Source of the DNA: an uncultured Hormoscilla sp.
GTDB lineage: Bacteria > Cyanobacteriota > Cyanobacteriia > Cyanobacteriales > Desertifilaceae
Direction: 5' to 3'
Length of the DNA stretch: 64,000 nt
Assembly: GCA_963921275.4 (NCBI GenBank)
Contig: OZ001293.3
Location: forward strand, 3,456,001-3,520,000
Part shown: one piece after another, positions 27,426 to 63,359 of the stretch
Layout: every line of letters begins with the position of its first letter
How positions within the stretch are numbered: the first letter of the stretch is position 1
Notes under the pieces: generated by a model
Databases searched by the model: none
What the model saw: only the letters and a program-made list of their open reading frames with translations
What the model was told of the DNA's origin: nothing
Made by a program: the position numbers and the translations under genes

Positions 27426-29168
27426 TTTTTCGGGCCGTCCGCGGACCGTACAAGATCTCGCGATGCTGACTGGGGTGAGCATCTCCCACAGTACGCTCCA
27501 ACGCTTTGTTCAACGAGAGGACTGGTCTGAGGTAGTGCGATTCGTTCCGGCATAAGCCAGTAGGTGAAAGTCGGGTCTGGCTCTATCAGCCAGATAACTC
27601 TGGTTATCATGGGGGTTAAATTCCCTTTCCCCAGGTACGGGGGTCGAGGGTACTACCGGTCGGAGGTGCTACGGAGCCACATCGCCGTGGTACCTCCCGA
27701 GGACTTAAATGTAGGATAACTGGCAGCCTAAGCCGGTGACGCCGCTAGGAAAGATGCTAATGGTTAGAACAAGCGAACCTATGTAAACCTCGTTAACCAG
27801 AACCAGCGGAAGAAGGCTTATGCGCTTGCCCAAAAAGGGAAATGGTAGTTAGTATTAGCTCTTGCCTCTGGCTAATAACGTACTCAAAGAACTCCCGGGG
27901 TATAGTAGGAACCTAAAAGCATCGTGAAATGATACTAGGGAACGAAGTAACCTCTCGTGAGCTATCCCCATTTGGACAAGTTAGATGTAAAGCACAAGCC
28001 ACGAAGAAGAAGGATGTCCTAAGAAGCTAACGCCCAGGGTAATGCCTGTGGATATGCAGACGTAGGACGGATATGGTAAGACACCCTTGGGAAAAGTAAC
28101 CTTAATGTCACAGAACTAGGGAGAAATTCCGAAAGTACGAATTTTGGATTCAAATCTTAGCCAGGTAAAGTTCAGAGCCCTTACGAAAAGCGGAAAGCAG
28201 AATGGGGAAGATGTTAGTAAAGAGCGGCGAGTATGGTTTGCTGAACTATCCTCCGCGAACCTTCCGCAGCTCAGTACTTAAACGGTCCAATAGGATTGAC
28301 CATAAGGGGTAAAATTTCAAAGGGTAAGGGACAACGGGGGTAACCCCCAGTAATCCTACTGATGACAACAGCTTACCAACCAGTAGCCGTGTGCGGTTCC
28401 AGTCGCTCTTCAGGTTTCGCTCTTGGAGGGTTGGGGAGTGATTCCCAGCTCGACCCCGACCGAGATAGCTGAACCGATTCAGGAGCTCAGCTTGGATGGC
28501 GGCATGATTCGCCTTCGTACCGATTTTTCGGGCCGTCCGCGGACCGTGGAGGGTCAACCTGGTGAGTGGCGAGAATACAAAGCCTTAAATGTCCATGAGC
28601 AAGGCAGTGTGGCTTTCTTCAAGGATAATCAAGGGCTGCTTGAGTGGGTGAATGCCCAGCCCCTCGGGGCGCAGTTCACCGGTCTCGGAGATGGTCATGA
28701 TGGGGTGTGGAACATTTTCAGTGGTATCGGGACACCAGAACAACGTATCGAAGTGCTCGATTGGTATCACCTAATGGAAAATGCCAATAAGGTGCAAGGG
28801 ACACCGGCTCAATCCGATTTTTCGGGCCGTCCGCGGACCGTGCAGATCCGATTTTTCGGGCCGTCCGCGGACCGTGCACTCCTGTGGCGAGGGGAGACCC
28901 AGAGGGCGATTAGTTATCTGCGCCAACAGCAATGTCGGGGAGCCACAGGGTTGATCAACTACTTGAAGCACCATCAGACGCGCATCATTGACTACCAGGC
29001 TAGCCCTCCTGGCGTCGGGCCGCTGCGCGAACGGGCAGGCAGCTCGGCACTCGATTGGCTCTGGTCGGGTTGAGTCCCTGGTGAAACAAATTGGGTTAAG
29101 GGTGAAATTACCGGGGGCACAATGGCGAGCCGAGAATGTGCCGATTTTTCGGGCCGTCCGCGGACCGT
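27426..29168 (+). repeat. Five identical 24-bp inserts TTTTTCGGGCCGTCCGCGGACCGT
   Basis: At 27426-27449, 28524-28547, 28818-28841, 28852-28875 and 29145-29168, each directly after CCGA. Confidence 0.95.
27535..28461 (+). ncRNA. ORF-less group II intron (927 nt), DV degenerate
   Basis: Starts GTGCG and ends CTCGACCCCGACC. EBS1 TGCCTC (27863-27868) pairs with exon GAGGTA. Removal restores WSEV|EIAEPI. Confidence 0.9.
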
Positions 29169-29642
29169 AGGTGTTGAAGCATCGCTGTGCCTACCTGAAT
29201 GGCGCATTAGTTGCCTAATCAGACTCAGTAAATCCACTTTTGCTGAGTAAATATACTCATCGCCTAACTGAGATGCACCCCATACAACGAGCCTCTTATC
29301 TGCGATCGGGAATCAAGTCTCTGCGGATCGAGCATGACGGTCAGCTGCTGGGTAGCATCACCAGTTCCTTTGGCGTCGCTTGCTTCCCAGAACACGGTCA
29401 AACCCTACAGGCAGTCATCGCAGCCGCTGATGCGACACTTTACCGCGCTAAAGCCTCCGGGCGCGATCGGGTGATCTCAGCTTGAATATAACCATAAGTA
29501 GTCATCTATCCAATTAACAATTTTCAATTGGCAATTAACAATTTTCAATTTTCAATCCGATTAGTTGTATCGACGGGTACAAAAACAGATTTCCGACTGC
29601 GCTAAAGTCATAATAAATCGATGTAGTTCAGGCTACATAACC

Positions 29643-32524
29643 ATGCGAGTTGAGCAATTACAAGCTTTTTTAGCTGTTGCCGAAACCGGTAACTTTCAGC
29701 AAGCGGCGAGAAATTGTGGAGTGACGCAATCGACCATTAGCCGCCAAATCCAAGGACTAGAAGAGTACTTGGGAATGCCACTGTTTCACAGGGGATATTC
29801 GGCCAAATTAACTATAGGAGGAGAAATGTTCTTTAAGAGGGTCTGCAAAATCTGTCAAGAGTGGGATTCTGCCACCACCGAATTAGCTCAATTATTAGCA
29901 GGAAAACAACCAGAACTCTGTGTAGGAGCGATTCCTTCAGTTTGTGCCCATGCTTTACCGCCAGTGTTGCTCTCCTTTTGTCGAGACTACCCTCAAGTGC
30001 AGTTGCGAGTCACGTCCTTAGGGAGCGATCGGGCGCTGAAAGTGCTCAAAGACGGCATGGTTGATCTGGCGATCGTCATGCCAAATCGCTTCTTAACCGT
30101 CAGTTCCGAGATCGTAGTAGATCTGCTATTGTCCGAGCCGATCGAAGTATTAATGGCCTCGAATCACCCTCTCACCCAGTACGAACATCTGTCCTGGAAT
30201 TTATTAGCCTCCCAATCGCAAGTAGTATTTAAGGATGGCTATGGTATGGGACGCCTGGTGCAAGAAGCCTTTTTGATACAAAATCTCACCCTCAATGCCG
30301 TTTTGGAGTTAAATACCCTCGATGCCTTTCAAGCCTACATTCCGCACGACAAGTGTACTACATAAATAAAACATCGGTCTTTTTAACTCTTACAATATCA
30401 CAAATATAGGCAAATATCCAGTGCAGCGTCCCTTAAAATACCCAAAAAATTATACCAACCAACAACAACAACTTACTTGACATAAAATTACTAAAATTTT
30501 TCTATTATTGCTCAATATCAAGCTACTCAGAGGTGAAATATCTCTAAGTTATACTCATTATTGAATGTGTTTTTACATAATTTACCCTCTTGAATTTTAC
30601 GCCAGTAAATAGTACCGCGCTCCATGCTGGGGGAAAGAATTTCAGAAAGTGCAAACGCTCCTCATTAATATTTGAAATCTGTTTGTTACCGCCTGATATT
30701 TAGATAGGGATTGACTGAAAACATTTAAATATCCAAGGTAGGGTCGGTCTATCCGTCAGCGGACCTAACTGATTTTTTACTCCTGAACCTGTTCCTTTAA
30801 GTGTTTGCCTTATCTGTCGCTTTGCTACTTTATACACTAACAAAGATCAAGCCATAATTAAACCTAAAACTTCAATTCGTTTTGGAGATTTAATAAATAC
30901 ACTATCCGCAAAAAACATTGGGTCTTTAACAAACTTAAAACAACGCTCCACTTCCTGCTGCTCTATTTTATATATGTGGAGCATTTTTTCTGAATTTAGC
31001 GCTAATTTATCAAGTTGATTAGTTGCTAAAACAAAGGGTCCTGCCTGATTTTTTTATGTTGCACTTGCTCATTGACGCTCTTGTTGCTTGGACTTGATAG
31101 TGGCAAGAAGATTCTCCACTCGTGGAAATTGATTGAGTTGTTATGTCCGTTAGTTCATGATATAATGATTTTTTTAATAGCTTCTTTGCCCCTACTATAG
31201 CATCCGGGGCACAAGCAAATTTCCGACAACTTAATTCTTTTAATTTTTTTTGAGCAACACCTAAATCTTTGTCGATTTTATTCGACAAATTTTTTAGGTC
31301 TAATTCCCGACGACATCACTAGCCATCTTTGCTCTATATCTCCATAGTTTTGCTTTACTTCTAGGTAACGATATCCAAAAAGCTGATATAAAATTCTCTG
31401 TATCCGCCTCCGTGACTAACTTCTTGGCTGCTTTAATAGTAAGTGGAACTCGCCATAACCACTTAACATCACCGTTGCAAATTTTCTTGAGTATATAATG
31501 CTGCATCAGCTACCATTAATCCTGAAAAGTTGTTTTTGATGCTGAAGGAAGTTCTTTTTGGTCTGATGCATTTCCATCTCCCATTTTCATCCATAAGGGA
31601 ATACCTCCTGAACAAATCAACTGCATTGTATATTGTTTCAAATCTGGTCTCTGGTCTCTAGAGTTATTTTTATCGGGTTCAATAACTTCCACCTCTACTT
31701 CTGATGTTTTGTACTCGAACATGAAATGAACTTGAATCCTGCTGTTTCCTTTTTGATTTGAGATTTTTTTAATACCTCTAACAGGACCTCGACAAATATT
31801 TTTCCTATTGCATATAAATCATCCATAACTCTACCCAATTTATCATCATTCAAATATTCCGGTTTTACTCCAACTCCAATCAAGTGTTAAGCATGCTTTT
31901 CCCTCAAAAAATCTGGCAAACAGGTATAGCTGACACTAACCCATTAATTATCATCGCTTTAACAACTTGACCAGAGCTAATTTTCTCTGATGAGTGTTTT
32001 TCCAATCGCCGGTTAATTATCTCTTCTATTCCTATTTCATCGATGATTCCGGCAACTAATCCCAGATGATCTAGATTGGTAATTTCCATGTGCAAGTATC
32101 TGAACTTCTTTGACTTTCAATTATAACTCAATTTTGTGATTTTGAGACAGATTTTTTCAGCATCCTGAGTATAAATACTCAGAAATGCCTAAAGGTACTA
32201 CATTTGTGTTGCAAGATCAGATCGTAATACATAGCAGATTACAATTTGTCGTGCGGAATGTGGGTTCAAGGGGTAGTCCACCAAGGAGAACTGATCGCCC
32301 TGTTACCCCGATCGGCATTAATGCAGGCACGCCTTGACCCGACCCTGGCCGTCAGAGCGATCGCCTCGGGCAATCAAGAGCATATATCATCTCCACCCTT
32401 GACGAGTCAAGTGGTATTGGTCACCACCCGCGATCGACTCCAGATTCCCCCAATTGGCCATTTCCGCCAACTGGTCAAAGGGCTTTACCCACAGTTTCAA
32501 CCTCAGCTATCAGCAGTCAGCTGA
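29643..32524 (+). pseudogene. ntcB: LysR-family regulator (NtcB-like) split by IS1634
   Basis: MRVEQLQAFLAVAETGNFQQAA...VTQSTISRQIQ. The frame rejoins across the IS as LDAFQ|GVVHQGELIALLP. Orthology is assigned from recalled NtcB N-termini. Confidence 0.65.
30334..32264 (-). mobile_element. IS1634-family element, transposase heavily frameshifted
   Basis: TIRs CCTACATTCCGCACGACAA / TTGTCGTGCGGAATGTGGG, 6-bp TSD TTCAAG. NLDHLGLVAGIIDEIG, LNDDKLGRVMD and RPDLKQ motifs. Confidence 0.9.
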
Positions 32525-32649
32525 AAATTGTCAATTGACAATTGCGCGATCGTAAGTGCGGATTGCTTCGTTCAGAGCAACACAGGCGAGCGAGCGCTAT
32601 AAATATGAATAAATAAATCTACCTTCCTCAATTCTCAATTAACAATTGC

Positions 32650-33477
32650 TCAATTCTCAATTTCCAGACTCATGCCTTCCCTGGCTAGCAAGCTATCAGG
32701 AAAGACTGATTTTAATTTGGCTTCCATAAGTTCTAGAAACCGATCGTTGTGGCAGGGGTCGTGGTGACAAATTACCAGCTTCTGAACCCCAGCCGCCTTT
32801 GCCACTTCAATCCCCGTCTTCCAGATAAAATCTTTCCAGTCAGTGTTAAAGGATGGAAACCTTACGCTAACCGACTCTATTGTTGCATCGTAAATCAGTA
32901 TATTCGCGTTCCGGGCTAAATGCAGCAGACTTTTATCTAAGCGATCGGGGCGCAGTAATGTATCCGTAGCGTATACTGCTGTATTTCCCTGACAACTCAC
33001 CCGGTAGCCAGTAGCGCAATTAGTTGGGTTGAGACAGACCGTTTCAATCGCCACCTCCCCTAGGGCCAGTTCCGACTCCGGTTCCAGATCGTAAAACTTC
33101 ATATCCGACCCCATGATCCCAATTGGCACTGGGAAATTAGGCGGCAGCATCTGCTCGAACAGGCGCTGTTCCATCGAAGCCCCATTAGCTGCCGACGCCC
33201 CGTAAATGTGAAAACGATTTATCGGAATAAAACCTGAGACAAAAAACGGGAATCCTTGAATCCGGTCCCAATGACAGTGAATCAAGAATAGATGGGCTTC
33301 CACAGGCATCTGGCTGAGTAGATGCTTTCCCAGCACCCTCACACCGGTGCCCGCATCAAAGATCAAGAATTGATTAGCCACCCGCATTGTCACACAGGAG
33401 GTATTACCCCGTAGCCCATTGTCTCCCTGCCCGGGGTGGGAATCTCCCCTCGGACGAACTGGACAGTAAATTCGCAA
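32650..33477 (-). CDS. MBL-fold metallo-hydrolase (5' end appears damaged; possible pseudogene)
   Basis: GNTSCV, DAGTG, HCHWDRIQGFPFF and HHDP motifs. Confidence 0.75.
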   Translation of the reverse strand: MRIYCPVRPRGDSHPGQGDNGLRGNTSCVTMRVANQFLIFDAGTGVRVLGKHLLSQMPVEAHLFLIHCHWDRIQGFPFFVSGFIPINRFHIYGASAANGASMEQRLFEQMLPPNFPVPIGIMGSDMKFYDLEPESELALGEVAIETVCLNPTNCATGYRVSCQGNTAVYATDTLLRPDRLDKSLLHLARNANILIYDATIESVSVRFPSFNTDWKDFIWKTGIEVAKAAGVQKLVICHHDPCHNDRFLELMEAKLKSVFPDSLLAREGMSLEIEN

Positions 33478-33532
33478 TCAGCGCTCATAACATTCTTCGC
33501 CTTTTCTGGTGAAGATTTTGGCAATGCGGCTA

Positions 33533-33619
33533 CGATGTGCTCTGCGCGCTCGATGTCTCCGGAGTAGTGCGATTAGCGCTCTCCGGAGACATCGTATTCG
33601 CACTACCCATCGCACATCG
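33533..33619. repeat. Self-nested hairpin mini-elements
   Basis: Inner 44-bp copy at 33551-33594 within an outer degenerate copy. Confidence 0.75.
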
Positions 33620-33710
33620 TGTGATGGTTCATTATCTGAGCCTGCCAGTTGCTTCCTACCCGCACCCCAGCATGCTCAGACTACCGCCAGTTACTATTTT
33701 TAGCGTAGCG

Positions 33711-33828
33711 TGTTGCACATTTTGGGGATGATGCCATTGTTTGCACCAGCAAAACGTTACTGAAAGTGGCTTATAGTCTACGTTTAAGACTTATGCAAAG
33801 AGACCCATCATCCCGTCCGAAGTGCAAC
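33711..33828. mobile_element. Diverged second copy of the 113-bp MITE (opposite orientation)
   Basis: GTTGCACATTTTGGGGATGAT...CATCATCCCGT...GTGCAAC aligns with the reverse complement of 26858-26970. Confidence 0.7.
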
Positions 33829-34340
33829 TATTTTTGTGCCGCGTCAATACATTTTTTCACCAGAGGCCTCACCTCTGATATATCTTTCCAGCCGAGTATT
33901 TCAGTAACTTTTTTCTCTAAATTTTTGTAAGTTCTGAAAAGTTCGGCAATTTCATCCAACCGATGGGGTGCCACATCTTGGAGGGATTTTACCTCAGCAT
34001 AGCGCGGGTCATCGTCGGGCACGCAGAGAATTTTTTCATCCCGATCGCCCCCGTCAATCATTTCCAACATTCCTATTGGCCGCGCCGCTATCACGCAACC
34101 CGGGAAAGTGGGCTGATCCATCATCACCATACCATCGAGGGGGTCGCCATCGTCGGCTAGGGTATTGGGGACAAAGCCGTAATCGTAAGGATATTGTACC
34201 GAAGCATAAAGCACCCGGTCTAGGATCAAGGCTTGCATATCCTTATTATACTCGTACTTATTTTTGCTTCCGGCTGTGATTTCGATCAATACGTTCAGCA
34301 AACCCGGTTTTGGTTGGGCTGGTATCCGCGATAAATCCAA
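33828..34340 (-). CDS. ppa: Inorganic pyrophosphatase
   Basis: [29 protein letters not shown] and DEK motifs. TTG start after GAGGAG. Confidence 0.95.
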
Positions 34341-34621
34341 TTTAATACTCCTCGCTAACAGTAACATTCCGACCCGCGTCAGTTCAAGGCAGTCCGAGTC
34401 GGGTTTGGGGTGTCGATCTGCATGGGGTCTCGGCACCCCCAAAGCTAATTGTAGGGGAATACGTTTAACTCGAACAGGTCAAAATTCTTTCTTCAAATTC
34501 TTTCTTCAAAATTGACCACTGACTTAATATATTTTAATAGTTATATATCTTATTATTGATTAATCGATTATAAAGGGACGGGTGGTCAGGACTTACACGG
34601 CGGACATCGCTACATCTTGAC

Positions 34622-34673
34622 CACCAGTCACCAGTCACCAGTCACTAGCCACCAGTCACCAGTCACCAGTCAC
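34622..34673. repeat. Heptamer tandem repeat (CACCAGT)n, STRR-like
   Basis: About 7 units. Other heptamer arrays lie at ~19765-19797, 29510-29556, 32628-32662 and 56201-56224. Confidence 0.85.
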
Positions 34674-35299
34674 TTGATCCGTTGGTAAAGTCCCTTGGCG
34701 ATATCCAGCAGGTTGATTAATTGCTGCCATTCTGGAGCATCAGGATGGTGGCTGTTGGCCCATTCTATCTTCAGGCTTTTTTGTAGCAGATCCAGCAATA
34801 AGTCTGGAGATTGCAATTGGCCAGTCGAAATGGCCTTTTGCGGCTCCTCTGTTGGCGTTGACTCTGTGGGATCAAAGGTAGTTGACTCTGTGGGCTCAAA
34901 AGTAGTTGATTTTGTTGGTTCAAAGGTAGTTGACTCTGTCGGTTCAAAGGCAGTTTCCTTGATTTTCTGTCCTTGCTTAGCCAGATCCAGAGCCTTCTGA
35001 GATACAAGGTCTGGTAGCTTGGGGCGATCGGATAAAGAGATGCGAGATAGTTCGCCCAACAGGGAGATCACCTGCTCTACCCACTCCAGAGATGAGGACT
35101 GCCAAGCATTGGCACCACTTTGGCTGTTACCTTCCTCTTGGATGCTCTTTGCCTTTTTAGCTAGTGGTATAGCTCTTATAGAGATATTTTCTGGTAATTT
35201 GGGGAGATCTGACAGACCTGCACGAGCGATATCCCGTAACAGTTGAATCACCTGCTCTACCCACTCTCTCTCTTCTTTCTGCTTCTTCAAGTCATTCAT
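34670..35299 (-). CDS. Hypothetical protein with an internal duplication and FEPTESTT repeats
   Basis: 209-aa ORF. EWVEQVI...SD.PKLP occurs twice, followed by four 24-nt repeats. Confidence 0.65.
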   Translation of the reverse strand: MNDLKKQKEEREWVEQVIQLLRDIARAGLSDLPKLPENISIRAIPLAKKAKSIQEEGNSQSGANAWQSSSLEWVEQVISLLGELSRISLSDRPKLPDLVSQKALDLAKQGQKIKETAFEPTESTTFEPTKSTTFEPTESTTFDPTESTPTEEPQKAISTGQLQSPDLLLDLLQKSLKIEWANSHHPDAPEWQQLINLLDIAKGLYQRIK

Positions 35300-35795
35300 T
35301 TTTCACGCTAGTAGTTTTCAATATCTCAGACTCGGATATTAGGTAACTTCTCCCGACTCCACTCCAGACTGTCAGGGGACTCCAGAGCATAAAATCTTCA
35401 TTAAATCTGCTTATAATACCATTTTGAAACAAGATTGCTACAGATGGGGAGTCTGGAAGTCCCCGATGGTCCAACGGTTTCTCCGGAGTAGTGCGTAAGA
35501 GCGCTCTCCGGAGACACCGAAGATTTTGGCAATCTCAGATCGTTGCATCTCTTCAAGGTATAAGCTGTTTTTGGGATCCACCGGGCAGGCATGGGATAAA
35601 CCCTTTATTTCGGTTTGTTTGGACACCGACCCACAGCTGGCCAATAGGTGAAGGGCCGCAGTTCGATATCCTCCAGAGGGGACGCGCTACTCGCACTACC
35701 CCAGAGATATCGCCGCCTCCCATACGCTGATTTTTAATCCCATCGCGTTCCGTCTAGCCTCCCGATAGCGCTGCGCTGGGGGCGCAGCCATAGCG

Positions 35796-38700
35796 TTATT
35801 TTTCCGTCAGCTTCCAGACTCCATCCCAAGTTTCATTGGGTGGTTGGTCTTCAAACAGCATACAACGCTGTATGTGTAATTTAGCCGCCTTATTCTTCGG
35901 ATCGATGTCCAGAACTGCTTGAAACTCACCCTGGGCGTTCTCAAACGCTTTCTTCGCCTTATCCGTAAACTGCTGCTTGGCTAGCCCGATCAGTTTCCAG
36001 ATCAGAGCTTGTGACATTTCCTTGGCCTCATCGGATAACATCTGTTGGTCTTTTTCTTTAGCGCAGAACTGAAGAAGCTTAGCGGTCAACAGCTTCTTGA
36101 TCTCCCGGGGGGGAGTAAGCTTGATCTCCCGATCTGCCAAGGACTTTGTCGTGTCTCCGGAGTAGTGCGAATAGCGCTCTCCGGAGACACGGCGGGCTTC
36201 TGAAGAAGGCATCTGCTTGAGTTCCTCTAATGACAGCCGCTTGATAGCATTGGACCCTAAGATTTGCTCTAGTTGAGCTAATGACAGCTGCGAGATCGTA
36301 TCCCGTAAAATTTTATCCTTACGATCGGCAAACTCCTTCTCCTCGGACTCTGATACCTCTTCTGGCAGCTGTTCTAACAAAGATATCATCTCGTCTGAGG
36401 ACAATTTTTCCCTTGCCGGTTGTAGGTAATACTCGCGCCCTTTGTGATAGTGGTCGATCGCCTTCTGCTTTTCCTCTGGAATCGGTCGAGCCAGCGTGCT
36501 CCTGCCTGGCTGGATCCCCACCAGTTCGTATATTCTCACCGGTTCGCTTTTTCCCTTCACGGTAATAAAGTCCAGCTCCCTGACTATTAGCCGCCTCGCA
36601 TAGGGTTTATAAGTATTTTCGCTGATGACTATGTCTGTGCCATATTGCTTGCTCGTCCCTTCCAGACGAGAGGCCAGATTGACACCATCACCAATAGAAG
36701 TCAGTTCCATGCGTTTGCTGGAGCCAATATTGCCACTCACGACTTCATCGGTATGGATCCCCATGCCAATGCCGATCGCCATCTTACCCTCTGCAATCCG
36801 AGCCTCATTGAATTTCTCCAATCGCTGGCGCATGGCGATCGCCGTTTGCATCGCATACCAGGCATGATCGTTGAGGGGCGCTGGCGATCCAAACACCGCC
36901 ATCAGGGCGTCACCTATATATTTATCAAGAGTGCCCCCGTAGTGCAAGACCGCGTCCACCATTTCTTCAAAATAGCTGTTGAGCATCACCACCACTTCTT
37001 CGGCTTGCATTTTTTCCGTCAATGTGGTATAGCTGCGAATATCTGAAAACAGCACGGAGACATGCTTGCGCTTGCCTCCCAACCCCGTATCGCCACTTGC
37101 TAGCAATGCCTCTGCCACTTCTGGCGTCATGTAACGATACATCAGATTTTTGACCTGCTTCTCATCGGAGATATCTTCCATGACCACTAATGCCCCGTTT
37201 ACTTTGGTGGGGTCGCTAGCATCGGACATTGAGTTAATCGATAGATTTATACTCTGCTGTACCGTTCCGGAAAAATAGGAGTCTTTAGACAACAAAGTTT
37301 GATCTGGGTAATACTGTTGCCGTTCTTTTTCATCTAGGGGTGAGAGGGCTGCGTCAAACCATTTGCCAAAATCACCTTCCTTGAGTTTCAGCAAGTCCCG
37401 CATCAACTTACCCTCTATGAATTCGTTGGAGCCATACCCTAATAATTGCTTGGCCGATTCGTTGGCGGCCATAACGATACCCTTTTTATCCGTGGAGATC
37501 ACCCCATTGGTCAAGCTGCGCAGGATATCCTTCTGAATTTGCTCCTGCTGCTTCACTTCCGCAAACAGCTTCGCATTTTGCAGGGCTACACCGGCTTGAA
37601 TGTTAAACGCCTGCATGAATTCTTGGTCAGAACGATTAAAGCTCGCCTTCCACTGTTCCGGGGCTTTGGGCCAATCATTTGGGTCATAGGGCGGGTACTC
37701 TCCCTGTTTCTTCTTGTTGATTAACTGCGTCACCCCGATCAACTCGTCATTGGCGTTAAACACGGGCATGCACAACATACTGCAAGTGCGATAGCCTGTC
37801 TTCTGATCCGTTTGTTTGGAAGTTTCCGAACGCCCATCTTCATACAGGTCAAAGGGAATCAGCAGGGGCTGATGAGATTCCGCCACCATGCCTGCGAAGC
37901 CCGCTGTCCTGGGGATGCGGATTTCTGTTAACTTGCCTGCGATCGGGATTTTCGTCCACAGCTCATCTTTTTCGTGGTCTATCAGCCACAGGGTGCTGCG
38001 ATCAGCGTTCATCAGTTCCTTGGCCTGATCCATCACCTTTTTCAGGGTGTCTTCTAAGTCCAAACTGCTCTTGGACAGGGAGTTTACCGCGTTCATCAGG
38101 GCTGCCGCCGCCCGTTGTTTCTGGGTTGCTGCATAGAATGATTTAGAGGACTCCAGTATGAGGAGAATGGATGGGGCAAACTCTCTAAAAACTTGTTCGT
38201 CTTCTGATGTGAACCCCTCTATATCGATTTTTTCTGCCAATTCTGCGTAGGGGTACTTATCGTGCTTTAATTTATTTATCAGTTGCACAACCGCCACCAA
38301 CTCTCCTGTCTCCTCATTCAACAGGGGCATCGCTAGCATGGTGTAGGTGCGGTAGTTGTTTTTTTTGTCAAATTCCTTGGCCGCCACTGAACGGGGATCA
38401 TCATAAAAGTCGTAGGGGATATTGACCACTTTTTTCCATGTGGCCACTTCTCCGGCAATCCCTTTATCTGCTGGAATTCTAATTTCTAGAGCATTCCCAT
38501 TGTCATCCTTGGCTACAATTGTAAACAGTTCATTTTTTTCTTCATCGAACAGAAAAATGCTGCTGCGATCTGTATTTAGCAGTTCCCCCGTTTTCATGGT
38601 GATGGAACGCAACATCTCATCCAGAATTGCGTCAAACACCTGATTTTCCAGATCCAGCATCGACAGGGTTTGATTGACCGTTTTTAGTTTATCTTCTACG

Positions 38701-39005
38701 TCGGTGACAACTTGTTTGAATGTGTCCTTTTTCAGCGAGGCCATAAATTCTGAGAAACTGCCCTTGGCTGTGACTAAGGCACCCCCAGAGGATGCTTTTA
38801 GGGGCGCTGTTGAGTTTTCTACCACTTCCGGACTTTCCCTATCTATCACTGTGCCAGTCCCCTGCCCAAGGTCGCCCTGGTCTAGATGGTTGTAGTTTAC
38901 CTGTTTGGGGGCATCTTCATCAATTATTATAGTGGCAGTAGCATCCAAAGTCTGCTGATGCTGAGATGAAGCTTTCATAGATGTCACCAAGGCTTTGATT
39001 GACAA
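35796..39005 (-). CDS. GAF-GAF-PAS class III adenylate cyclase (CyaB-like)
   Basis: Two GAF domains (DKKNNYRT, DQKTGYRT), PAS, FSDIRSYT, DKYIGDALMAVFG, GDGVNLASRLE and C-terminal WDGVW. Confidence 0.93.
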   Translation of the reverse strand: MSIKALVTSMKASSQHQQTLDATATIIIDEDAPKQVNYNHLDQGDLGQGTGTVIDRESPEVVENSTAPLKASSGGALVTAKGSFSEFMASLKKDTFKQVVTDVEDKLKTVNQTLSMLDLENQVFDAILDEMLRSITMKTGELLNTDRSSIFLFDEEKNELFTIVAKDDNGNALEIRIPADKGIAGEVATWKKVVNIPYDFYDDPRSVAAKEFDKKNNYRTYTMLAMPLLNEETGELVAVVQLINKLKHDKYPYAELAEKIDIEGFTSEDEQVFREFAPSILLILESSKSFYAATQKQRAAAALMNAVNSLSKSSLDLEDTLKKVMDQAKELMNADRSTLWLIDHEKDELWTKIPIAGKLTEIRIPRTAGFAGMVAESHQPLLIPFDLYEDGRSETSKQTDQKTGYRTCSMLCMPVFNANDELIGVTQLINKKKQGEYPPYDPNDWPKAPEQWKASFNRSDQEFMQAFNIQAGVALQNAKLFAEVKQQEQIQKDILRSLTNGVISTDKKGIVMAANESAKQLLGYGSNEFIEGKLMRDLLKLKEGDFGKWFDAALSPLDEKERQQYYPDQTLLSKDSYFSGTVQQSINLSINSMSDASDPTKVNGALVVMEDISDEKQVKNLMYRYMTPEVAEALLASGDTGLGGKRKHVSVLFSDIRSYTTLTEKMQAEEVVVMLNSYFEEMVDAVLHYGGTLDKYIGDALMAVFGSPAPLNDHAWYAMQTAIAMRQRLEKFNEARIAEGKMAIGIGMGIHTDEVVSGNIGSSKRMELTSIGDGVNLASRLEGTSKQYGTDIVISENTYKPYARRLIVRELDFITVKGKSEPVRIYELVGIQPGRSTLARPIPEEKQKAIDHYHKGREYYLQPAREKLSSDEMISLLEQLPEEVSESEEKEFADRKDKILRDTISQLSLAQLEQILGSNAIKRLSLEELKQMPSSEARRVSGERYSHYSGDTTKSLADREIKLTPPREIKKLLTAKLLQFCAKEKDQQMLSDEAKEMSQALIWKLIGLAKQQFTDKAKKAFENAQGEFQAVLDIDPKNKAAKLHIQRCMLFEDQPPNETWDGVWKLTEK

Positions 39006-39264
39006 TTAATTTTATTTATATTTATTTATCGACAAATCTACTATTTGTCAAGGGTGAATGAGCTGGCTGACGACAGACTCTTCCTTAGTTTACTCTGTAA
39101 GAGTTATTTGAGTATGGGTATTAGTGTGATTTTCTGGGTCCAGATAAATGGGCTCGTTCGTGATTTTGGCATTAAAAGCATATTTATATGTGTTGTATTT
39201 TACCAGGAAGAGCCGATCTCGGCTGATGATTTAATAATTTGGCTTGCCCCCGATCGGGCAAAAT

Positions 39265-41019
39265 TTACACGCTGCCTTGGGTTAAGCTCAAGGATTGACG
39301 CAATTTGGCGGCTTCAGCTAGGAGAGATTCGGCAAAGGCGTAGGCTTGAGTGGCTGATTGTCCCCCTGTCAGCTGTGCTAGTTCGGCGCAGCGCTGCTGG
39401 TTGTCGAGTTCTTTAACTCGGACAACGGTGCGTTCTGCTTCCCTTGGCTGCGGTATGACTTGTTTGTTGACGTGGAAGTGATGGTCGGCCATCGCTGCCA
39501 CAATGGGTTGGTGGGTGACACAGAGGACTTGGTGCCGTCCGGAGAGTTGATGCAGCTTGGAGGCGATCGCCCCTGCAATTCGACCAGAAACTCCGGCATC
39601 TATTTCATCGAACAGGAGTGTCCCAGCGCTGTCTACCTGGGAGAAACAGGCTTTCAGGGCTAGGAGAAAGCGGCTCATTTCACCTCCAGAGGCTGTTGCT
39701 GCTAAGGGTTGTAAGGGTTCTCCTGGGTTGGAGCTAAACTCAAATACGACCCGATCGGATCCGGTGGGGCTGGGGGAACTTGGTGTTAAAGTTACCTTAA
39801 ACTGTACTTTGGACATTGCCAAGGGTTTGAGCTGTTCTACTAGATGGGTTTCTAATTTATCTGCTGCTGCTCGCCGCTGCCAGTGTAGCTTTGAGCAGGC
39901 GTCATTCAGGTTTTGCAGCGCCTCTTGATAGCTTTTTTCTAGCAGTTCCAGGGTCTGAGTGTCACCAGTTAGTTCTTCTAGTTCTGAAGAGATGCTCTGG
40001 TAATGGGCGATCGCCTCTGCTAATGTGGGTCCATACTTGCGGGCTATCAGCTTGAGTTGCTGTATTCTCGCTTGTATTTCTTCCAGTCGTTGGGGGTCAC
40101 TTTCCAGGGCCGTGCTATAGGAGAACAGCTGTCTGCCTGCTTCGGTCACTTGAATATAGGCCTGAGAAACCATTTCTAGAATTCCCTGCAGTGAGCGATC
40201 GTAGCCGATCATCTCGGACATTATTCTCTCGGCTTTACCCAGCAAGTCTGCTGCTGCCTCGGAGTCCCGATCGCTTTGGTATATTGCTTGATATACCTGA
40301 TAGCTCTGCTGCTGCAATTCTACGCTGTGAGCGAGTCGCTGGCTTTCTTTTTCTAGCACCTCCAATTCGTCAGGGCTGTCTAGGTTGGCGGCTGTTAGTT
40401 CCTGTAGTTGGTATTCTAGCTGATCTATTCTTTGTAGCCGCACCTGCTCCGATGTCCGCCGCTGTTCTAGAGTCTCTCTGGCTTGTTCGCAAGCATCAAA
40501 GGCGGCGGCCACCGAATCGCGCATTGACAGCACTGCCTCCCCGCCGTAAACATCCAGCCATTCCCGCTGGAGTGATGGTTGCCCTAGTTGTACCGTTTGA
40601 CCTTGAGCTGTGATTTCTACTATACGAGAGCGCAATTGCTCCATCTGCTGCCGGTTTACTACTATGCCATTCAGTCGCGATCGCCAACGTGATCGCCGGT
40701 TCTCTTGATTGCTGGCCAGTTCTCGGCTACAAACTAGGAATATCCCATCTAGCGGTTCTATCTCTTGGTCTTTCAGCCATTGGACCCCATTGGCATCCAG
40801 TTCAAAGGTTGCTTCCACTACCGAGCGATCGGCACCCGCACGGATGGATCTACTGCTAATTTTGCCTCCTAAGGCTGCATCTATTGCTTCTAATATGATT
40901 GACTTGCCAGCACCTGTTTCTCCTGTGAGCACTGTCATACCGGCACCAAATTGCAAATCTAGACTATCTATCAGAGCAAAGTTTTCTATCCGCAGTCCGA
41001 CCAGCATGGATTCGCTCAT
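39265..41019 (-). CDS. recN: DNA repair protein RecN
   Basis: TGETGAGKS, ASGGEMSRFLLALK, FDEIDAGVSG, CVTHQP. Confidence 0.97.
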   Translation of the reverse strand: MSESMLVGLRIENFALIDSLDLQFGAGMTVLTGETGAGKSIILEAIDAALGGKISSRSIRAGADRSVVEATFELDANGVQWLKDQEIEPLDGIFLVCSRELASNQENRRSRWRSRLNGIVVNRQQMEQLRSRIVEITAQGQTVQLGQPSLQREWLDVYGGEAVLSMRDSVAAAFDACEQARETLEQRRTSEQVRLQRIDQLEYQLQELTAANLDSPDELEVLEKESQRLAHSVELQQQSYQVYQAIYQSDRDSEAAADLLGKAERIMSEMIGYDRSLQGILEMVSQAYIQVTEAGRQLFSYSTALESDPQRLEEIQARIQQLKLIARKYGPTLAEAIAHYQSISSELEELTGDTQTLELLEKSYQEALQNLNDACSKLHWQRRAAADKLETHLVEQLKPLAMSKVQFKVTLTPSSPSPTGSDRVVFEFSSNPGEPLQPLAATASGGEMSRFLLALKACFSQVDSAGTLLFDEIDAGVSGRIAGAIASKLHQLSGRHQVLCVTHQPIVAAMADHHFHVNKQVIPQPREAERTVVRVKELDNQQRCAELAQLTGGQSATQAYAFAESLLAEAAKLRQSLSLTQGSV

Positions 41020-41291
41020 GTCAATTTTCCAACGGTCCTACCGTTCCGGAAAAATCGGACTGCGACTGGTCAGCGGGACAATTCGCGGTCGGTAGTCCGA
41101 TTGGATCTAGTACGCGGCTTCTATTGTACCACATTTTTGGCCAATTATCTCTGACTTCAGTCTAACTTCTGTACCGCTAATTTCCGCAGATCCCCAAAGT
41201 TGAAGAAAAAGTTAAGCTGCTCATTGTATTGAACATTAGCAACTTGTTACAATTGTTAACAATTGTAGCTGGCAGAGTAGATAAATATCCC

Positions 41292-43358: not shown

Positions 43359-43483
43359 GAAGTAAAAAATGAATTAAGAATCTAGGTTTCGCCTGAGCGC
43401 CCGTTTCTCATTCCCGGCGACCCCGTTGGGAATGAGATTATAGAGGCAGAGCCTCTAGTTGACAATTTGGAGGTAAAATTAGT

Positions 43484-44143
43484 ATGGTGACAATAACATA
43501 TCCGACTATAGCTAAGCCAGTTGACGCGGAATCAATCTTTACATTAAGAGGCGTGACTTGGCCAACTTATAAAGCTTTGATGGCGGACGTTGGCGACGGT
43601 CGCCCTTGGAGAATTGCTTACGATGGGGAGATATTAGAACTGAGAATGCCATTACCAAAACATGAAGAACCTAAACGAATGATAGAGAGTTTTGTCGAGG
43701 TAATTGTTGATGAGCTAGAAATAGAAATCAGAAGTCTTGGGGCCCTAACTCTCGATCGAGAAGATTTAACCAGTGGGATCGAACCGGATACTTGTTTCTA
43801 CATTCTTGAAGAGCGTCGTGTTAGAGGTAAAGAGAAAATTAATTTGCCTTCCGATCCGCCACCTGACTTAGCTATGGAGTCCGACTATACAAGTTCTTCT
43901 CTGAATAAGTTTAACATCTATTCGTCTTTGCAGGTTCCTGAACTTTGGCGCTATCGCAACGATAAGCTGGAAGTTTATCATTTGGTCCAGGGAAAGTACG
44001 AACAGCGTGATCGTTCTTTAGCTTTTCCTTTTTTGCCGATCGCAGAAGTTCTTAATTTCATCGAACAAAGTATAACGATCGGACAAAGGGCGGCGGTGCG
44101 GTTGTTTCGGCAACGAATTCGAGAAATTTTAGCTACTGGGTAG
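43484..44143 (+). CDS. Uma2-family endonuclease
   Basis: YDGEILELRMP...HE, GIEPDTCFY, PPPDLA.E.D, VPELWRY. Confidence 0.9.
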   Translation: MVTITYPTIAKPVDAESIFTLRGVTWPTYKALMADVGDGRPWRIAYDGEILELRMPLPKHEEPKRMIESFVEVIVDELEIEIRSLGALTLDREDLTSGIEPDTCFYILEERRVRGKEKINLPSDPPPDLAMESDYTSSSLNKFNIYSSLQVPELWRYRNDKLEVYHLVQGKYEQRDRSLAFPFLPIAEVLNFIEQSITIGQRAAVRLFRQRIREILATG

Positions 44144-47132: not shown

Positions 47133-47173
47133 TTCTTCTGCGTCTCCTAATCAACTATGCACTGACAAATATA

Positions 47174-57373: not shown

Positions 57374-58558
57374 ATGAAGTGCCCGAAGTCAACCTCCCTC
57401 ACAACATCGAGTCCCAGTCTGGCATCCCTGCGGTGCGATCGCGCCTGGGTTGAAATTGAATTAACTGCCTTAGCACATAATACGCGAAAAATCAAGCATA
57501 TTTTATCACCAGGGACAGATATAATGGCCGTAGTCAAGGCAGATGCCTACGGTCACGGGGCAGTGACCGTAGCCGAGACTGTGCTAGCAGCCGGTGCTAG
57601 CTGGCTGGGAGTAGCAACTATTCCAGAAGGAATAGAACTGCGAGAAGTAGGCATTAAGGCTCCAATTCTGATATTAGGGGCTGTCAACGCTCCTAAAGAA
57701 ATCCAGGCGATCGCCCATTGGCAACTGCAACCAACCCTGTGCAACCCCAAACAAGCCTTAGTATTTTCAGAGACTTTAGCAGCAGTAGGTAAAAGTATAC
57801 CCGTACATCTGAAACTGGATACAGGGATGTCCCGACTGGGGACAGCATGGCAGGAAGCAGCAGAGTTTGCCAGACTTGTAGAGCGATTGCCTCATTTAGA
57901 AATAGCGAGCGTGTATTCCCATCTGGCCACAGCTGACAGTCCAGATCCGAGGATAATGAACCAGCAGCATCAGCGGTTCCGCCAGGCGATCGGGCTGCTG
58001 CGTGCAGCTGGCATCACCCCACCCAAGCTACATATTGCCAACTCAGCTGCTACCTTAAATGACCCCAGCTTGCATTACGATCTGGTAAGAGTCGGTTTAG
58101 CACTGTATGGTTTACATCCAGCAGCCCATCTCCAACCAGTGCTCTCACTCAAACCAGTAATGCAAGTGAAAGCGCGAGTAACGCAAATAAAAGAGATTGC
58201 TACTGGAACCGGTGTCAGCTACGGTTATCAATATATCGCCCCACGGGATATGAAGCTAGCAGTAGTGGGTATTGGCTATGCAGACGGCGTCCCCCGTAAG
58301 CTATCTTCCAAGATGCAGGTTCTTATCCGAGGTAAGCTGGTACCGCAAGTGGGAGCAATTACAATGGATCAGCTGATGCTGGACGTGAGTGCTATTAATG
58401 ATTTACAGATAGGAGAAGTGGTCACCCTCTTAGGGCAAGATGAATATATAGAAATCTCAGCAGATGACTGGGCTACCATGCTGGGGACTATTTCCTGGGA
58501 AATTCTCTGTAGCTTTAGACATCGGCTACCCCGGGTCGCCCGAGTTAGCGTCAGCTAA
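57374..58558 (+). CDS. alr: Alanine racemase
   Basis: AVVKADAYGHG, HLKLDTGMSRLG, ANSAA, GYADG, MDQ. Confidence 0.97.
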   Translation: MKCPKSTSLTTSSPSLASLRCDRAWVEIELTALAHNTRKIKHILSPGTDIMAVVKADAYGHGAVTVAETVLAAGASWLGVATIPEGIELREVGIKAPILILGAVNAPKEIQAIAHWQLQPTLCNPKQALVFSETLAAVGKSIPVHLKLDTGMSRLGTAWQEAAEFARLVERLPHLEIASVYSHLATADSPDPRIMNQQHQRFRQAIGLLRAAGITPPKLHIANSAATLNDPSLHYDLVRVGLALYGLHPAAHLQPVLSLKPVMQVKARVTQIKEIATGTGVSYGYQYIAPRDMKLAVVGIGYADGVPRKLSSKMQVLIRGKLVPQVGAITMDQLMLDVSAINDLQIGEVVTLLGQDEYIEISADDWATMLGTISWEILCSFRHRLPRVARVSVS

Positions 58559-58589
58559 AATGAGACCAGCAGGATGGCACTGCACTGCT

Positions 58590-59744
58590 ATGACTTATAT
58601 TAATCCGACATTGATAAACGAAGTCAGAGGTTTAAGACTGACTAGCGAGGAGAAACAGTACATTCTCAGTAAAATGCATCCGGCAGCCCCAGACGGTTAC
58701 AGATATGCTGATGCCGTGTTTGAAGGGGGGGCATAAAAGGCATTGCCCTGTTAGGGGTAATGCGCTGCTGCGACGATCTAGGTCTGCGCTGGCGGAAGCT
58801 AGCAGGCAGTTCTTCCGGTTCCCTCACCGCCGCCCTGCTAGCAGCCAACTTTGCCATCGATCGGCTAGAACAGGAACTGGGTGAGTTGGACTACATGCAG
58901 TTCCTCTCTCAGAAAACTAGCCCCCTGATTTTCTGTGGCGATCCACGAGATGACATGAAGTTTCCTTTCTGGATGCTGTTTTTCCTCTTAGTGACCAGAA
59001 GTTTGGGACAATATTCCTCAGAACCCTTGCACTCTTGGGTAGCCTCAACCCTGAAGTCCCGTAAGATAAAAACCTTTCGTGACCTGGAAAAGGGCGAGAG
59101 ACAACTCAAGGTAGTAGCTTCCGATATCAGTCGGCGGGAGATGCTGCTGTTACCCGACGACCTCAACCCCGCAGCGCCCAACTTGGAGAACCAACAGCGG
59201 ACTGTTCGGGAAAAGATCCTCAGATCTTACTGCCTGGAAAGTTATCTTGACTATCGCTGAAGCAGTGCGACTGTCACTGAGCATACCTCTGTTCTTTGAG
59301 CCGGGAAGACTCGGTGACTACATGATTCTGGATGGAGGGCTATTGAGTAATTTCCCCTTATGGATATATGATGTCCAGCCACAGTCCGGTCAACCGGCAC
59401 GTTTCCCCCGCTGGCCGACCTTTGGTTTCCGCTTACTGGACAATTCAACTGGACGACAATCCCAGATTAAGGGGGTGTTTGACATTTTTTCCGCCTCCTT
59501 GAGAACTATGGCCGAAGCGAGAGACAGATATCACCTGCGAGAGATCGATCGGGGCCGGACGATCGAGATAGATGTCACCAATGCTGGGGTGACCACCACC
59601 CAGTTCAACGTTAAGCCGGCGGAAAAAGCCACACTCTACCGACTGGGATACGAGTGCACGAAAAAATTTTTTCTCTCCGATTGGAATTGGTCAGAACACT
59701 TGATACAGCGTGGTTTCAGCCGTCCGATCGCCCAGGTGGCGTAG
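58590..59744 (+). pseudogene. Patatin-like phospholipase, two frameshifts
   Basis: VFEGG|KGIA, AGSSSG, SLSIPLFF and DGGLLSNFP in three frames. Confidence 0.8.
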
Positions 59745-59827
59745 CCATGGGAAAAAATTTTTAGTGAAGACCTGCCCAATTTACGATCTCGGAGCTAGAA
59801 TCTGTTATAGTAGTAATCGATAGACCT

Positions 59828-59917
59828 GGAGAGGTGGCTGAGTGGTCGAAAGCGGCAGATTGCTAATCTGTTGACGGAACTAGATTCCGTCCGAGGGTTC
59901 AAATCCCTCTCTCTCCG
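59828..59917 (+). tRNA. trnS: tRNA-Ser (GCT)
   Basis: GGAGAGGTGGCTGAGTGGTCGAAAGCGGCAGATTGCTAATCTG, a long variable arm, then GGTTCAAATCCCTCTCTCTCCG. Confidence 0.96.
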
Positions 59918-60255
59918 TTCAATCCTAGGCAAACTCTGGTCAGGGCGATCACATTTGCCACCGGCAGGCGATCGCCCTGATTTGAGATGCTGTGCTCAAG
60001 ACATACTTCACAAAATTACAAGGGTGCCCTGTAAAATTGTATGATACCAAATCAGATTAATTATCCATGTTGAGGCGGAGAGCTGATACAAGCATGGGCA
60101 GAGGCAACGAACAGCTGCGATACTTGTTAGAGGGCGCGAGTGACTTATTTGGGATTATCGATCTCGATGGAAAACTGCTCTATGCCAATCAGGTATGGCG
60201 AGAGGTTCTAGGCTATAGTGAAGCAGAACTGTCGGGGATTTGCTTTTTTGACCTA

Positions 60256-62344
60256 GTGCTATGACCATTGGTAGTGATAAACATGTAATGATGGCACAAC
60301 TAACCCGACAAGCATTTGTTGTAATCATGCACAAAATACCAAATCGCGTGATTTTCTTCTTAGAGAATGATAATGTTTTCCGAACCAAGCGACTAATTCT
60401 TTGCCTCGTTGTTTAACCTTTCAATATGATTAGTTTTTCCAGTTTCTTTACCTACCGCAATAGTAACGCTTTTTCGGTATTGTTATATGCTTCCCAAAAA
60501 GTAAAAAACCTCGTCGATAAACAGGAAGTAAATATTTTCACAATTTTTTTGCAGAGACTGCGATCGCCCAACTCCTACAATTGTTTTTGTATCAAGTGCC
60601 AATGTTTGTTTTCTTTATTCCCAAGACCACATTTCATCACAAGTCAATTTTCCTTTGGGCTTGTCTGAAACCTTTAGATCACGGCAGATTTTTTATTAAC
60701 GTTTGTGAAACCTTTACTCGACGCGCAATACCTGCCTATTCTTTCAAGTAATAGCTCATCTATATTCTTTTTCTTTTCGGACGATACCGGCTGTCGGGTT
60801 TTTAATTTATTGCCGATTTTTTACATATTTTTGCTTTTTATTATGAGTACTACCATTTTTTACTGTTCGCTCACAATTACAATAAGGGCAATTGGGTCGC
60901 GACGATGATGATGTGTTCATAAGTCTATACTCGCTTTTGACTAATAACATAAGAGCATTTTTCTGATGAGCTATACATGAGAATATTTTATCATTGCTAT
61001 CAATTTGGCTAAGATAAAGAGCTGTTATATCATTCCTAAGAAAAGTAAGGATTAATACAGGGATGGAATGTTCTATCACTACATATTTTACCAATACCTG
61101 ACCATTTTTATTTGACGGATAGACATAAAATAGATAATATAGAGATTTGCCCCTCAAATGACTTGCCAGTCCCATGCCAAAAAAGAAGTACATCGTCACG
61201 CTCACTCCGTCGGAGCGTGACGCATTGTCCCAACTGACTCGTTCAGGTAAAGCAGCTGCCTATAAAGTTAATCATGCTCGGATCGCGGTTGTTAGCAGAT
61301 ATCAACCAAGACAACGGCGGTTGGACTGATTGCCAGATTAGCGAAGCCCTAGATATCAGTCAGGCCACCATTGAGCGGGTACGGCTTCGTGGAAGAAGGT
61401 GTGGAAGCCGCATTAAATCGCCAACCTCGTAGTCAGAACAAAAAGCGTCGCTTGGATGGAGAAAAAGAAGCTCACCTCCGGAGCTTTGGCCTGTTCATCT
61501 CCCCAGAGGGTCATGCAGGCTGGACTATAAGATTGTTAGCCGATAAACTGGTGGAATTAGAGTTAGTTGAATCTATTTCCCCTGAGACAGTGCGACAGAC
61601 ATTAAAAAAAAACGCTCTTAAGCCTTGGCTCAATAAGTCATGGGTGATTCCACCAGAAGTAAATGCGGAGTTTGTTTGTCAGATGGAGATGTGCTTGATG
61701 TCTACACTCGTCCCTACGACCCTGACTATCCTGTAATTTGCGGGAGATGAAACAACTAAGCAATTAGTTTTTGAAATCAAACAGCCTCTGCCACCAGACA
61801 AGAGCCAATATAACCGAAAAACTCCTGGTCAGATAGAGCGATATGACTAGGAGTACAAACGTGAAGGTGTTTGCAATTTGTTCATGGTTTTTGAGCCTTT
61901 TGCGGGTCAAGGTCATGTTACGGTTACAGACCAACGTACAGCTATTGCGGCCCGCCCATATTATGCAGAATGTAGTAGATGTTTTCTATCCTGATGCTGT
62001 CAAAATTATTGTTATTCAAGATAACCTTAACACTCATACGCCCGCTTCTCTTTACAAGGCTTTTAAGCCAGCTGAAGCTAAACGCATTCTGGAAAAGTTA
62101 GAGTTTCACTATACCCCCAAGCATGGCAGTTGGCTGAATATGGCTGAAATTGAGTGAGCGTGTTTTAGCGAGGCAATGCTTAGATTGTCGAATTCCAGCC
62201 TCTGAAAACTTTACTTCAAGAGGTGGCCGCTTTTCAACAGCGCCGCAATCAGGATTCTGGTCCTGTTAACTGGCGTTTCACCACTGAAGATGCTCGGATC
62301 TTACTGTTACGGCTCTATCCATCAATATAAAGTGGTCAAAGCAC
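60256..62344 (+). mobile_element. IS630-family element, degraded transposase
   Basis: Ends TA-GTGCTATGACCA / TGGTCAAAGCAC-TA. WTIRLLA, QDNLNTH and TPKHGSWLNMAEIE motifs. Confidence 0.9.
60270..61098 (-). mobile_element. Degenerate IS1-family element inserted in the IS630 left TIR
   Basis: Near-identical to 55270-56083, with 8-bp TSD TGACCATT. Confidence 0.88.
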
Positions 62345-62457
62345 TAGTGCATTGGGAAAGTCGCCCAGGTTTCCTCGAAGCATTCCAGTCTGTGCAAGCT
62401 AGCGATGGGGGTCATCACCTGGAACTGACCCTGATGGCCTCCGATGGGAAGCAGATT

Positions 62458-63359
62458 GTGCGATTCGTTCTAGTCTAACGTGGTCAAACACGGAACGCTA
62501 GCCTAAGAAATTAGGAACTCTGGTAATCATGGGGGTTGAATTCCCCTTCCCCAGGTACGGGGGTAACACCGGTCCTCAGTGCTGCGGAGTTACATCGCCG
62601 TGGTGTGGAGCGAGGACTTAAATGTAGGATAATTGGCAGCCTAAGCCGGTGATGCCACTAGGAAAGATGCTAATGGTTAGAACAGGCGAACCTATGTAAG
62701 CCTCGTTATCTCAAACCAGCGGAATAAGGCTTATACGCTGGCCCAAAAGGGAAATGGTAGTTAGTACTAGTTGTATTTTGTGGCTAATAACGTACTCGAA
62801 GAACTCCCGGGGTAAAGTAGGGGCCTAAAAGCATCGTGAAATGATACCAGGGAACGAAGTAACCTCTCGTGAGCTGTCCCCATTTGGACAAGTAAGATGT
62901 AAAGCGTAAGCCACGAAGAGGAGGGATGTCCTAAGAAGCCAACGCCCGGGGTAATACCTGTGGATATGCAGACGTAGGACGGATATGGTAAGAAGTCTTT
63001 GGGAAAAGTAGCCTTAATGTCGCAAAACTAGGGAGAAATTCCAAATAGTAGGAATGTTGGATTAAAATCTTAGCCAGGTAAAGTTCAGAGCCCCTACGAA
63101 GAGCGGAAAGCAGAATGGGGAAGATGTTAGTAAAGAGCAGTAAGTATGGTTTGCTGAACTATCCTCCGCGAACCTTCCGCAGCTCAGTACTTAAACGGTC
63201 CAATAGGATTGACCATAAGGGGTAAGGGACAACGGGGGTAACCCCCAGTAATCCTACTGATGACAACAGCTTACCAACCAGTAGCCGTGTGCGATGAAAG
63301 TCGCATGCACGGTTTCGCTCTTGGAGGGTTGGGGAGTGATTCCCAGCTCAACCCCGACC
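62458..63359 (+). ncRNA. ORF-less group II intron (902 nt), intact DV/DVI
   Basis: GTGCG start, DV AGCCGTGTGCGATGAAAGTCGCATGCACGGTT, end ACCCCGACC. EBS1 ATTTTG (62775-62780) faces exon CAGATT. Confidence 0.92.

Follow-up and report, generated by a model that had tools for sequence, protein, structure and literature searches.

ORF-less IIB2-type introns with an 8-nt spacer between bulged A and 3′ end, copied precisely into hundreds of sites of a cyanobacterial genome

All five group II introns of the window, a stretch of 64 000 nt (G000:C1:3456001-3520000) in the 7.03-Mb cyanobacterial genome G000, end in CC, 8 nt downstream of a bulged A, and belong to an ORF-less family that has been copied precisely into hundreds of sites of this genome. 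Because of this 8-nt spacer and of a GGG/CCCC pairing at the base of domain VI they are a variant of IIB2 rather than a canonical member, and it is the spacer, not the CC end, that departs from what is in print. The rules in print are GUGYG...AY and a spacer of 6 or 7 nt (PMC9294222, PMC4649490, PMC8643678, PMC6224600, PMC4748821, PMC4424553, PMC4028801, PMC8919778, PMC2882425, PMC3669008, PMC12584367, PMC4476101, PMC13026550, PMC3245105), and the only exceptions described in the cited portions of these papers are the Bacillus extensions and B.a.I2; boundary variants are also mentioned for Ulva, without specification (PMC13026550). Literature searches gave no paper on an 8-nt spacer among the matches listed, and no match at all for introns in Hormoscilla, in the records of which lie the 28 loci that are the nearest named relatives of a resident intron protein. 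That 8-nt CL2 introns already sit unremarked in the boundary figure of Abebe 2013, in Simon 2008, Costa 2016 or Toor 2001, or in the intron database, strikes us as possible though rather unlikely.

The original prediction, that all five introns end in CC rather than AY, was borne out by empty alleles, which fix every one of the five junctions with 0 bases between the flanks and with no C or CC kept in the exon. Empty orthologs of the I2, I3 and I4 sites lie at locus L061 and that of I5 at L069 of a congener (G001), while the flanks of I1 gave 7 empty and 5 filled matches within G000. The end motifs are found where they had been placed, CCCCGACC at 28461, 52672 and 63359 and CCCCATCC at 54300 and 50046 (minus strand), the next base being G, G, T, A and A, respectively, and the empty alleles reproduce the expected protein joins: WSEV/EIAE (I1), LWSSSHQG (I2), AD/VTRVRQIL (I3), GLYN (I4) and QI/LVEG (I5). 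I2 lies antisense to its host gene, so that at this site the restored frame reflects insertion precision and not splicing.

The same boundary emerges genome-wide. Of 313 distinct sites in G000, 43 had an exact 12+12 empty join; the spacer was 8 in every case, and spacers of 5, 6, 7, 9 or 10 gave no join (about 6 of the 43 are joins between tandem introns, not independent empty sites); shortening the flanks to 10+10 gave 54 joins at spacer 8 and 2 at spacer 9. In a BLAST search with 40+40 joins at spacer 8, a spanning homolog was obtained for 112 of 311 copies, gap-free in 108 cases and with a gap in 4. Among these 311 copies, reading frames with 100 codons or more in each flank were restored 29 times at spacer 8 and 26 times at the in-frame spacer 5, against 1, 0, 1 and 0 times at spacers 6, 7, 9 and 10. 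Near-identical copies of the I2/I4 family end in ATCC in 137 of 138 cases (ATTC in the other), followed by a variable base. No family showed use of an alternative 7-nt site; two copies that had lost one C were seen. Chance and target-site duplication as sources of the end are ruled out by the empty alleles. Both the boundary of the element and the precision of its insertion are established at the DNA level.

Table 1. Positions, in the numbering of the window, of the five introns, of the elements that define their 3′ ends and of a comparison intron end
Feature	Positions	Strand	Description
I1	27535..28461	+	927 nt; ORF-less; end A-CCCCGACC; 16-copy family; mispaired domain V; within a repeated IS-like element
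I2	50046..50916	-	871 nt; ORF-less; starts GTGTG (C>T variant); end A-CCCCATCC; 138-copy family; antisense in a hybrid histidine kinase gene
I3	51737..52672	+	936 nt; ORF-less; end A-CCCCGACC; domain V 5′ strand degenerate; between HisKA and HATPase parts
I4	53430..54300	+	871 nt; ORF-less; end A-CCCCATCC; 138-copy family; sense in the same kinase gene as I2
I5	62458..63359	+	902 nt; ORF-less; end A-CCCCGACC; single copy; sense in a PAS-domain gene
Bulged A and 8-nt spacer, I4	54292..54300	+	A at 54292; basis includes homology with 7-nt relatives
Equivalent bulged A, other introns	28453 (I1), 50054 (I2, minus), 52664 (I3), 63351 (I5)		
Gamma, I4	53899..53899	+	G, pairs with terminal C
Gamma, other introns	28012 (I1), 50447 (I2), 52217 (I3), 62924 (I5)		All G
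EBS3, I4	53793..53793	+	U, pairs with first exon base A
EBS3, other introns	27903 (I1), 50553 (I2), 52108 (I3), 62815 (I5)		EBS3/exon base U/G, U/A, U/G and A/U, respectively
EBS1, I4	53753..53758	+	AGACUC; complement of the family target consensus GAGTCT over 120 sites
EBS1, other introns	27863-27868 (I1), 50593-50588 (I2), 52068-52073 (I3), 62775-62780 (I5)		
Empty target site inside I4	54186..54209	+	Junction 54197/54198; other members of the family carry a nested copy here; no CC kept
RT-type intron 3′ remnant	10909..10987	+	A at 10980, 7-nt spacer, AAC end; canonical-looking comparison; end placed by the RT-type consensus

The window introns carry further marks of IIB2. The 5′ consensus GUGCGAUUC (PMC4649490) is exact in four of the five, I2 having GUGUGAUUC. 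In all five, the predicted fold of the first 110 nt includes the pair of additional stem-loops that IIB2 introns have at the domain I base (PMC8643678). Scores exceed the RF00029 gathering threshold for I2, I4 and I5 and fall below it for I1 and I3, in which domain V is mispaired. Families f2 and f3 show this damage, domain V being either mispaired, as in I1 (28376-28420), or without its 5′ strand, as in I3 (52590-52630). The Rfam alignment ends the window introns 1-2 nt short, so that any host gene annotated from it would be frameshifted. The kinase gene that holds I2 to I4 contains an antisense intron and a stop at 53170 and is probably dead, and the 3′ piece of the IS-like element around I1 has no Pfam match (the name ISKra4 comes from the original prediction). 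A repeated stretch with high contig depth was noted near 55176-55300, involving 55176-55790 and 60200-60800 of the window, with similar sequence near 55304 and 60304.

A D5-D6 profile search of G000 gave 442 matches, and motif counts gave 410 domain VI ends of the 8-nt type and 75 of a second type. Four endings account for 370 of the 410: ATCC (146), GACT (109), GACC (71) and TAAT (44). Pairing of intron starts and ends yielded 354 introns, of which we analyzed the 311 uninterrupted copies of 780-1010 nt, grouped into 45 families at 97% identity. These copies end in CC (197), CT (93), AT (19) or otherwise (2) and all fall within one clade. CC is consequently not the lineage mark that it had been taken for, the same lineage ending in CT or AT in 112 of 311 copies; the AY consensus is nonetheless missed, AT being found in only 19. 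Contig depth in X1 reached ~400-980 in the intron against ~4 in its flanks (four contig runs over 51000-55300), which indicates that the copies are not an assembly artefact; no intron-skipping joint was seen in these four runs, which are uninformative on splicing. Head-to-tail joins ATCC/GTGCG occur three times in G000. We also observed head-to-tail arrays of up to three copies and self-nested twintrons (G000:C1:5448518, 5449388, 826675 and 1326652); a single CCCCAT/GTGCGA match proved not to be an intron join.

We then asked what sets the 3′ site. By mutual information, gamma (J2/3) pairs with the last intron base in 45 of 45 families (G-C in 21, A-U in 22, G-U in 2); for the pairing of EBS3 and the first exon base the figure is 42 of 45 (U-A in 25, A-U in 9, G-C in 7, G-U in 1), with a mismatch in the remaining 3. 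The families are related and mosaic, so these covariation events are not independent; two more columns, which do not behave as pairs, follow the last base no less closely than gamma (MI 0.78 and 0.77), which shows that relatedness inflates the signal. The ATCC family has a gamma G-C pair although its markers are those of the T-ending group, which points to a separate change behind its G-C state. EBS1 pairs at 6 of 6 positions in I1 and I3, 5 of 6 in I4 and I5 and 4 of 6 in I2 (for I2 and I4, EBS1 is the loop matching the target consensus, the automatic pick having given spurious 6-mers). The proposed shift of the 3′ site does not take it off its determinants: gamma-gamma′ and EBS3-IBS3 pair exactly across the junction that follows the A at −9. 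The site is therefore chosen by the normal contacts, and the altered part is the stretch from the branch A to the end.

The non-AY ends are themselves not new. We checked 4 of the 21 curated IIB2 introns at the coordinates of Monachello 2021 Table S3 (PMC8643678), using RefSeq records in which the 5′ ends fall exactly on GTGYG. N.sp.I4 (L178:2000-4486, Nostoc pCC7120delta) ends in A-GGCATC, two A. variabilis introns in A-CTTCATC (7 nt) and an A. marina pREB6 intron in A-GGTTAAC (7 nt). The spacer of N.sp.I4 at its published coordinates is 6 nt, against the 7 nt given for IIB2. Non-AY ends are already implicit in the IIB2 catalogue, with AUC in three of the four introns, so an earlier doubt about prior cataloguing was right on this point. 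Judged by these introns, an AY end is no strict mark of a group II intron. The better-kept base in IIB2 is the A at −3, which is lost even so in the ATCC family.

CC ends and the 8-nt spacer also occur apart from each other in other cyanobacteria. Judged by gamma and EBS3, four IEP-bearing introns from outside the genus (L138, L142, L158 and L162) combine an ACC end with a 7-nt spacer, as may L139, for which 6 nt fits too. Conversely, boundaries predicted from gamma and EBS3 give an 8-nt spacer with an AAT end in IEP-bearing introns of other genera (L145, L148, L151, L153 and L154). The combination of 8 nt with ACC, ACT, TCC or GCC was seen only in genus g1 (G000, G002, G003 and G004) among the matches listed. 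A strict D5-D6 pattern matched 0 of 400 other genomes of the phylum, being too tight to show the range, and a looser one matched 30 of 400 other genomes of the order. Two introns of G022 (L040 and L052) have the domain VI end TCGACTCTTCTAA, possibly with a still longer spacer, and three from other genera (L140, L141 and L147, 5′ ends not found) end in A-CTCTAACC, possible further 8-nt CC ends.

Copies in sense orientation interrupt zwf (GACC), eno and prfC (TAAT), and gltB, metH, recJ and ectB (GACT), these seven named genes and a chromate transporter coming from 12 sense pieces scanned; 8 antisense pieces gave a baseplate protein and pstS as named genes. Searches with tblastn found one locus each for zwf and prfC. 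Sense copies in such genes favour splicing indirectly. Insertions in long ORFs are nearly as often antisense (27) as sense (29), which argues that selection for splicing is weak overall.

Mobility of the ORF-less family probably depends on a borrowed protein. None of the five window introns has an ORF for a CL2 intron-encoded protein in domain IV. The group II RT family has 123 matches in G000, 44 of them above the cut-off, and the genome contains 62 long ORFs with a YADD-like motif, 39 of which have D5/D6 nearby. In 38 of these 39 the ending is of the second type (A-GTTTAAT, 7 nt), and an 8-nt domain VI was found beside none of the 39. A ribozyme tree of 30 rows, built without domain VI (L012 was dropped because its 5′ end came from a nested intron; L004 and L020 were left out), confirmed that the ORF-less introns form one clade (100/99). 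A single clade uniting them with the RT introns of the genus was rejected (AU p 0.018), and with it their derivation from a resident RT intron by ORF deletion, as for TeI3; a single clade with the outside 8-nt introns was neither shown nor rejected (AU p 0.195). As the family lacks its own ORF and has inserted precisely and recently, it probably borrows the protein of the resident 7-nt RT introns, and as the two do not form one clade, the partners acting in trans would be distant. The ATCC family also inserts, often antisense, into the RT genes of introns that may mobilise it. A broken RT-type intron remnant at 10400-10987 of the window retains an HNH-like C-terminus.

With about even confidence, we propose that these are non-autonomous IIB2 introns that gained one C 3′ of the branch A, that the resulting 8-nt spacer is accommodated by a slip of GGG along CCCC that absorbs the extra base, and that RTs are supplied in trans. 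The bulged A at −9 is present as predicted and would be the branch point; its CUCGA motif is common to the 7-nt relatives, which points to homology with their branch A, and an A at −3 or −4 was rejected, being not conserved across families. The extra C would let the basal GGG pair with C1-C3, leaving a 1-nt bulge for branching, or with C2-C4, leaving a 2-nt bulge for exon ligation, and the shifted register would leave 7 nt past the bulge in step 2, the usual IIB2 value. The extra base is confined to the 3′ strand, as the 7-nt relatives L037 and L179 share the GAANGGG 5′ strand and have CCC where these introns have CCCC, and the two registers differ by 1.2 kcal/mol in I4. The second bulged base would be that 3′ of the A. 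According to Costa 2022 (PMC9294222), domain VI of introns with a 7-nt spacer moves by one base from one step to the next, which gives a 2-nt bulge, and IIB2 introns are incapable of this shift. The contact between G1 and the penultimate base (PMC3669008) cannot need an A in the 8-nt introns; if it is relaxed in IIB2, the last four bases could have drifted to TAAT, GACT, GACC, ATCC and AGCC, with gamma following. On the model of TeI3/TeI4 (PMC2882425), excision and retrohoming would rely on RTs that the resident 7-nt introns supply in trans. Further observations weigh against this explanation: families in which no more than two G's precede the A (I1 and I5) adopt another fold, which counts against the slip, and families f2 and f3, with damaged domain V, still fill 14 and 12 distinct sites.

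Boundary and branch A could be the same with no slip at all, the extra base being looped out in a tolerant linker and the junction placed by gamma-gamma′ and EBS3-IBS3 alone. We regard this as the serious contender, short of even probability: the register slip is our best guess from the sequence, the passive loop being nearly as likely. Boundary and covariation data fit it equally, there is free variation at positions −4 to −2, spacer length differs even among published IIB2 introns (N.sp.I4 has 6 nt and two others have 7 nt), the 8-nt relative L155 has four G's facing four C's, and Bacillus introns tolerate far longer spacers (PMC9294222). However, the added base is a C in ~370 of 410 ends and likewise in the 8-nt introns of other genera, for which a neutral loop gives no reason, and when the O.i.I1 helix was lengthened by one base pair, ligation was almost lost and surrogate sites came into use (PMC4748821). 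It is unlikely that the A at −9 goes unused and the introns leave as linear or circular RNA, by hydrolysis or circle formation, a route on which the spacer rule would not bind. Several families do have a mispaired domain V, and in Trichodesmium an IIB1 intron yielded circles but no lariat and its IIB2 host intron neither (PMC4649490), but the A is kept in all families and both junctions are precise (108 of 112), as full lariat reverse splicing predicts (PMC12584367). Splicing at canonical AC or AT, with the C or CC added or kept during mobility or belonging to the target, has very little probability left and is already contradicted at the DNA level: GAC and AT do look canonical at 7 and 6 nt and RT-added C's have been seen at a circle junction (PMC4649490), but no C's are present in the empty sites, each family has its own terminal base (C or T), which covaries with gamma, the base that follows this one is matched by EBS3, the three head-to-tail joins include ATCC, and a kept base would frameshift zwf, eno and prfC.

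Mechanism papers and boundary prediction alike take a spacer of 6 or 7 nt and an AY end as standard. High mobility in a family that keeps to neither rule shows which contacts really set the 3′ site, namely gamma-gamma′ and EBS3-IBS3, and the presence of matched 7-nt and 8-nt introns in a single genome, along with five natural end types, opens the strand-shift model of step 2 to direct testing in vitro. We advance only tentatively, as doubtful when taken whole, the wider reading that an IIB2 lineage gained branch-helix strand shifting through one C insertion, shed the need for a penultimate A and became among the most prolific bacterial introns on record, served by RTs of another clade with another domain VI; the record copy numbers in print are 101 (PMC8919778) and at least 150 (cited in PMC4649490), in Arthrospira. 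If the gain of strand shifting is true, these introns would be a natural test of nucleotide counting by the second-step site and a step toward the free branch-to-3′-site distance of spliceosomal introns.

Among known systems, the window introns most resemble the cyanobacterial IIB2 (CL2) introns (PMC8643678, PMC9294222) in their 5′ start, the two extra domain I stem-loops, EBS1, EBS3 and gamma, the CUCGA branch motif and the occurrence of non-AY ends (AUC in N.sp.I4 and the two A. variabilis introns). They differ in having a spacer of 8 nt, where 7 is stated (6-7 in the 4 of 21 entries checked), in being ORF-less with ACC, ACT, TCC or GCC ends, and in reaching ~370 copies. The ORF-less TeI3 of T. 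elongatus, driven by TeI4 IEPs (PMC2882425), offers a parallel in spread by retrohoming with borrowed IEPs (probable here), in EBS-defined families and in twintrons. In contrast, the TeI introns are IIB1 with 17 copies and TeI3 arose by ORF deletion from a resident intron, whereas in G000 the ORF-less introns form a clade apart from the resident RT introns, with another domain VI. Bacillus class B introns with a 3′ extension (domain VII) and B.a.I2, with its second site 4 nt downstream (PMC9294222, PMC4424553), likewise exceed 6-7 nt while gamma-gamma′ and EBS3-IBS3 still set the site. Those introns have folded inserts of 53-56 nt or two sites; the folded insert of 50-70 nt past domain VI that marks class B is absent from the window introns, which have one extra base, one site and high recent mobility.
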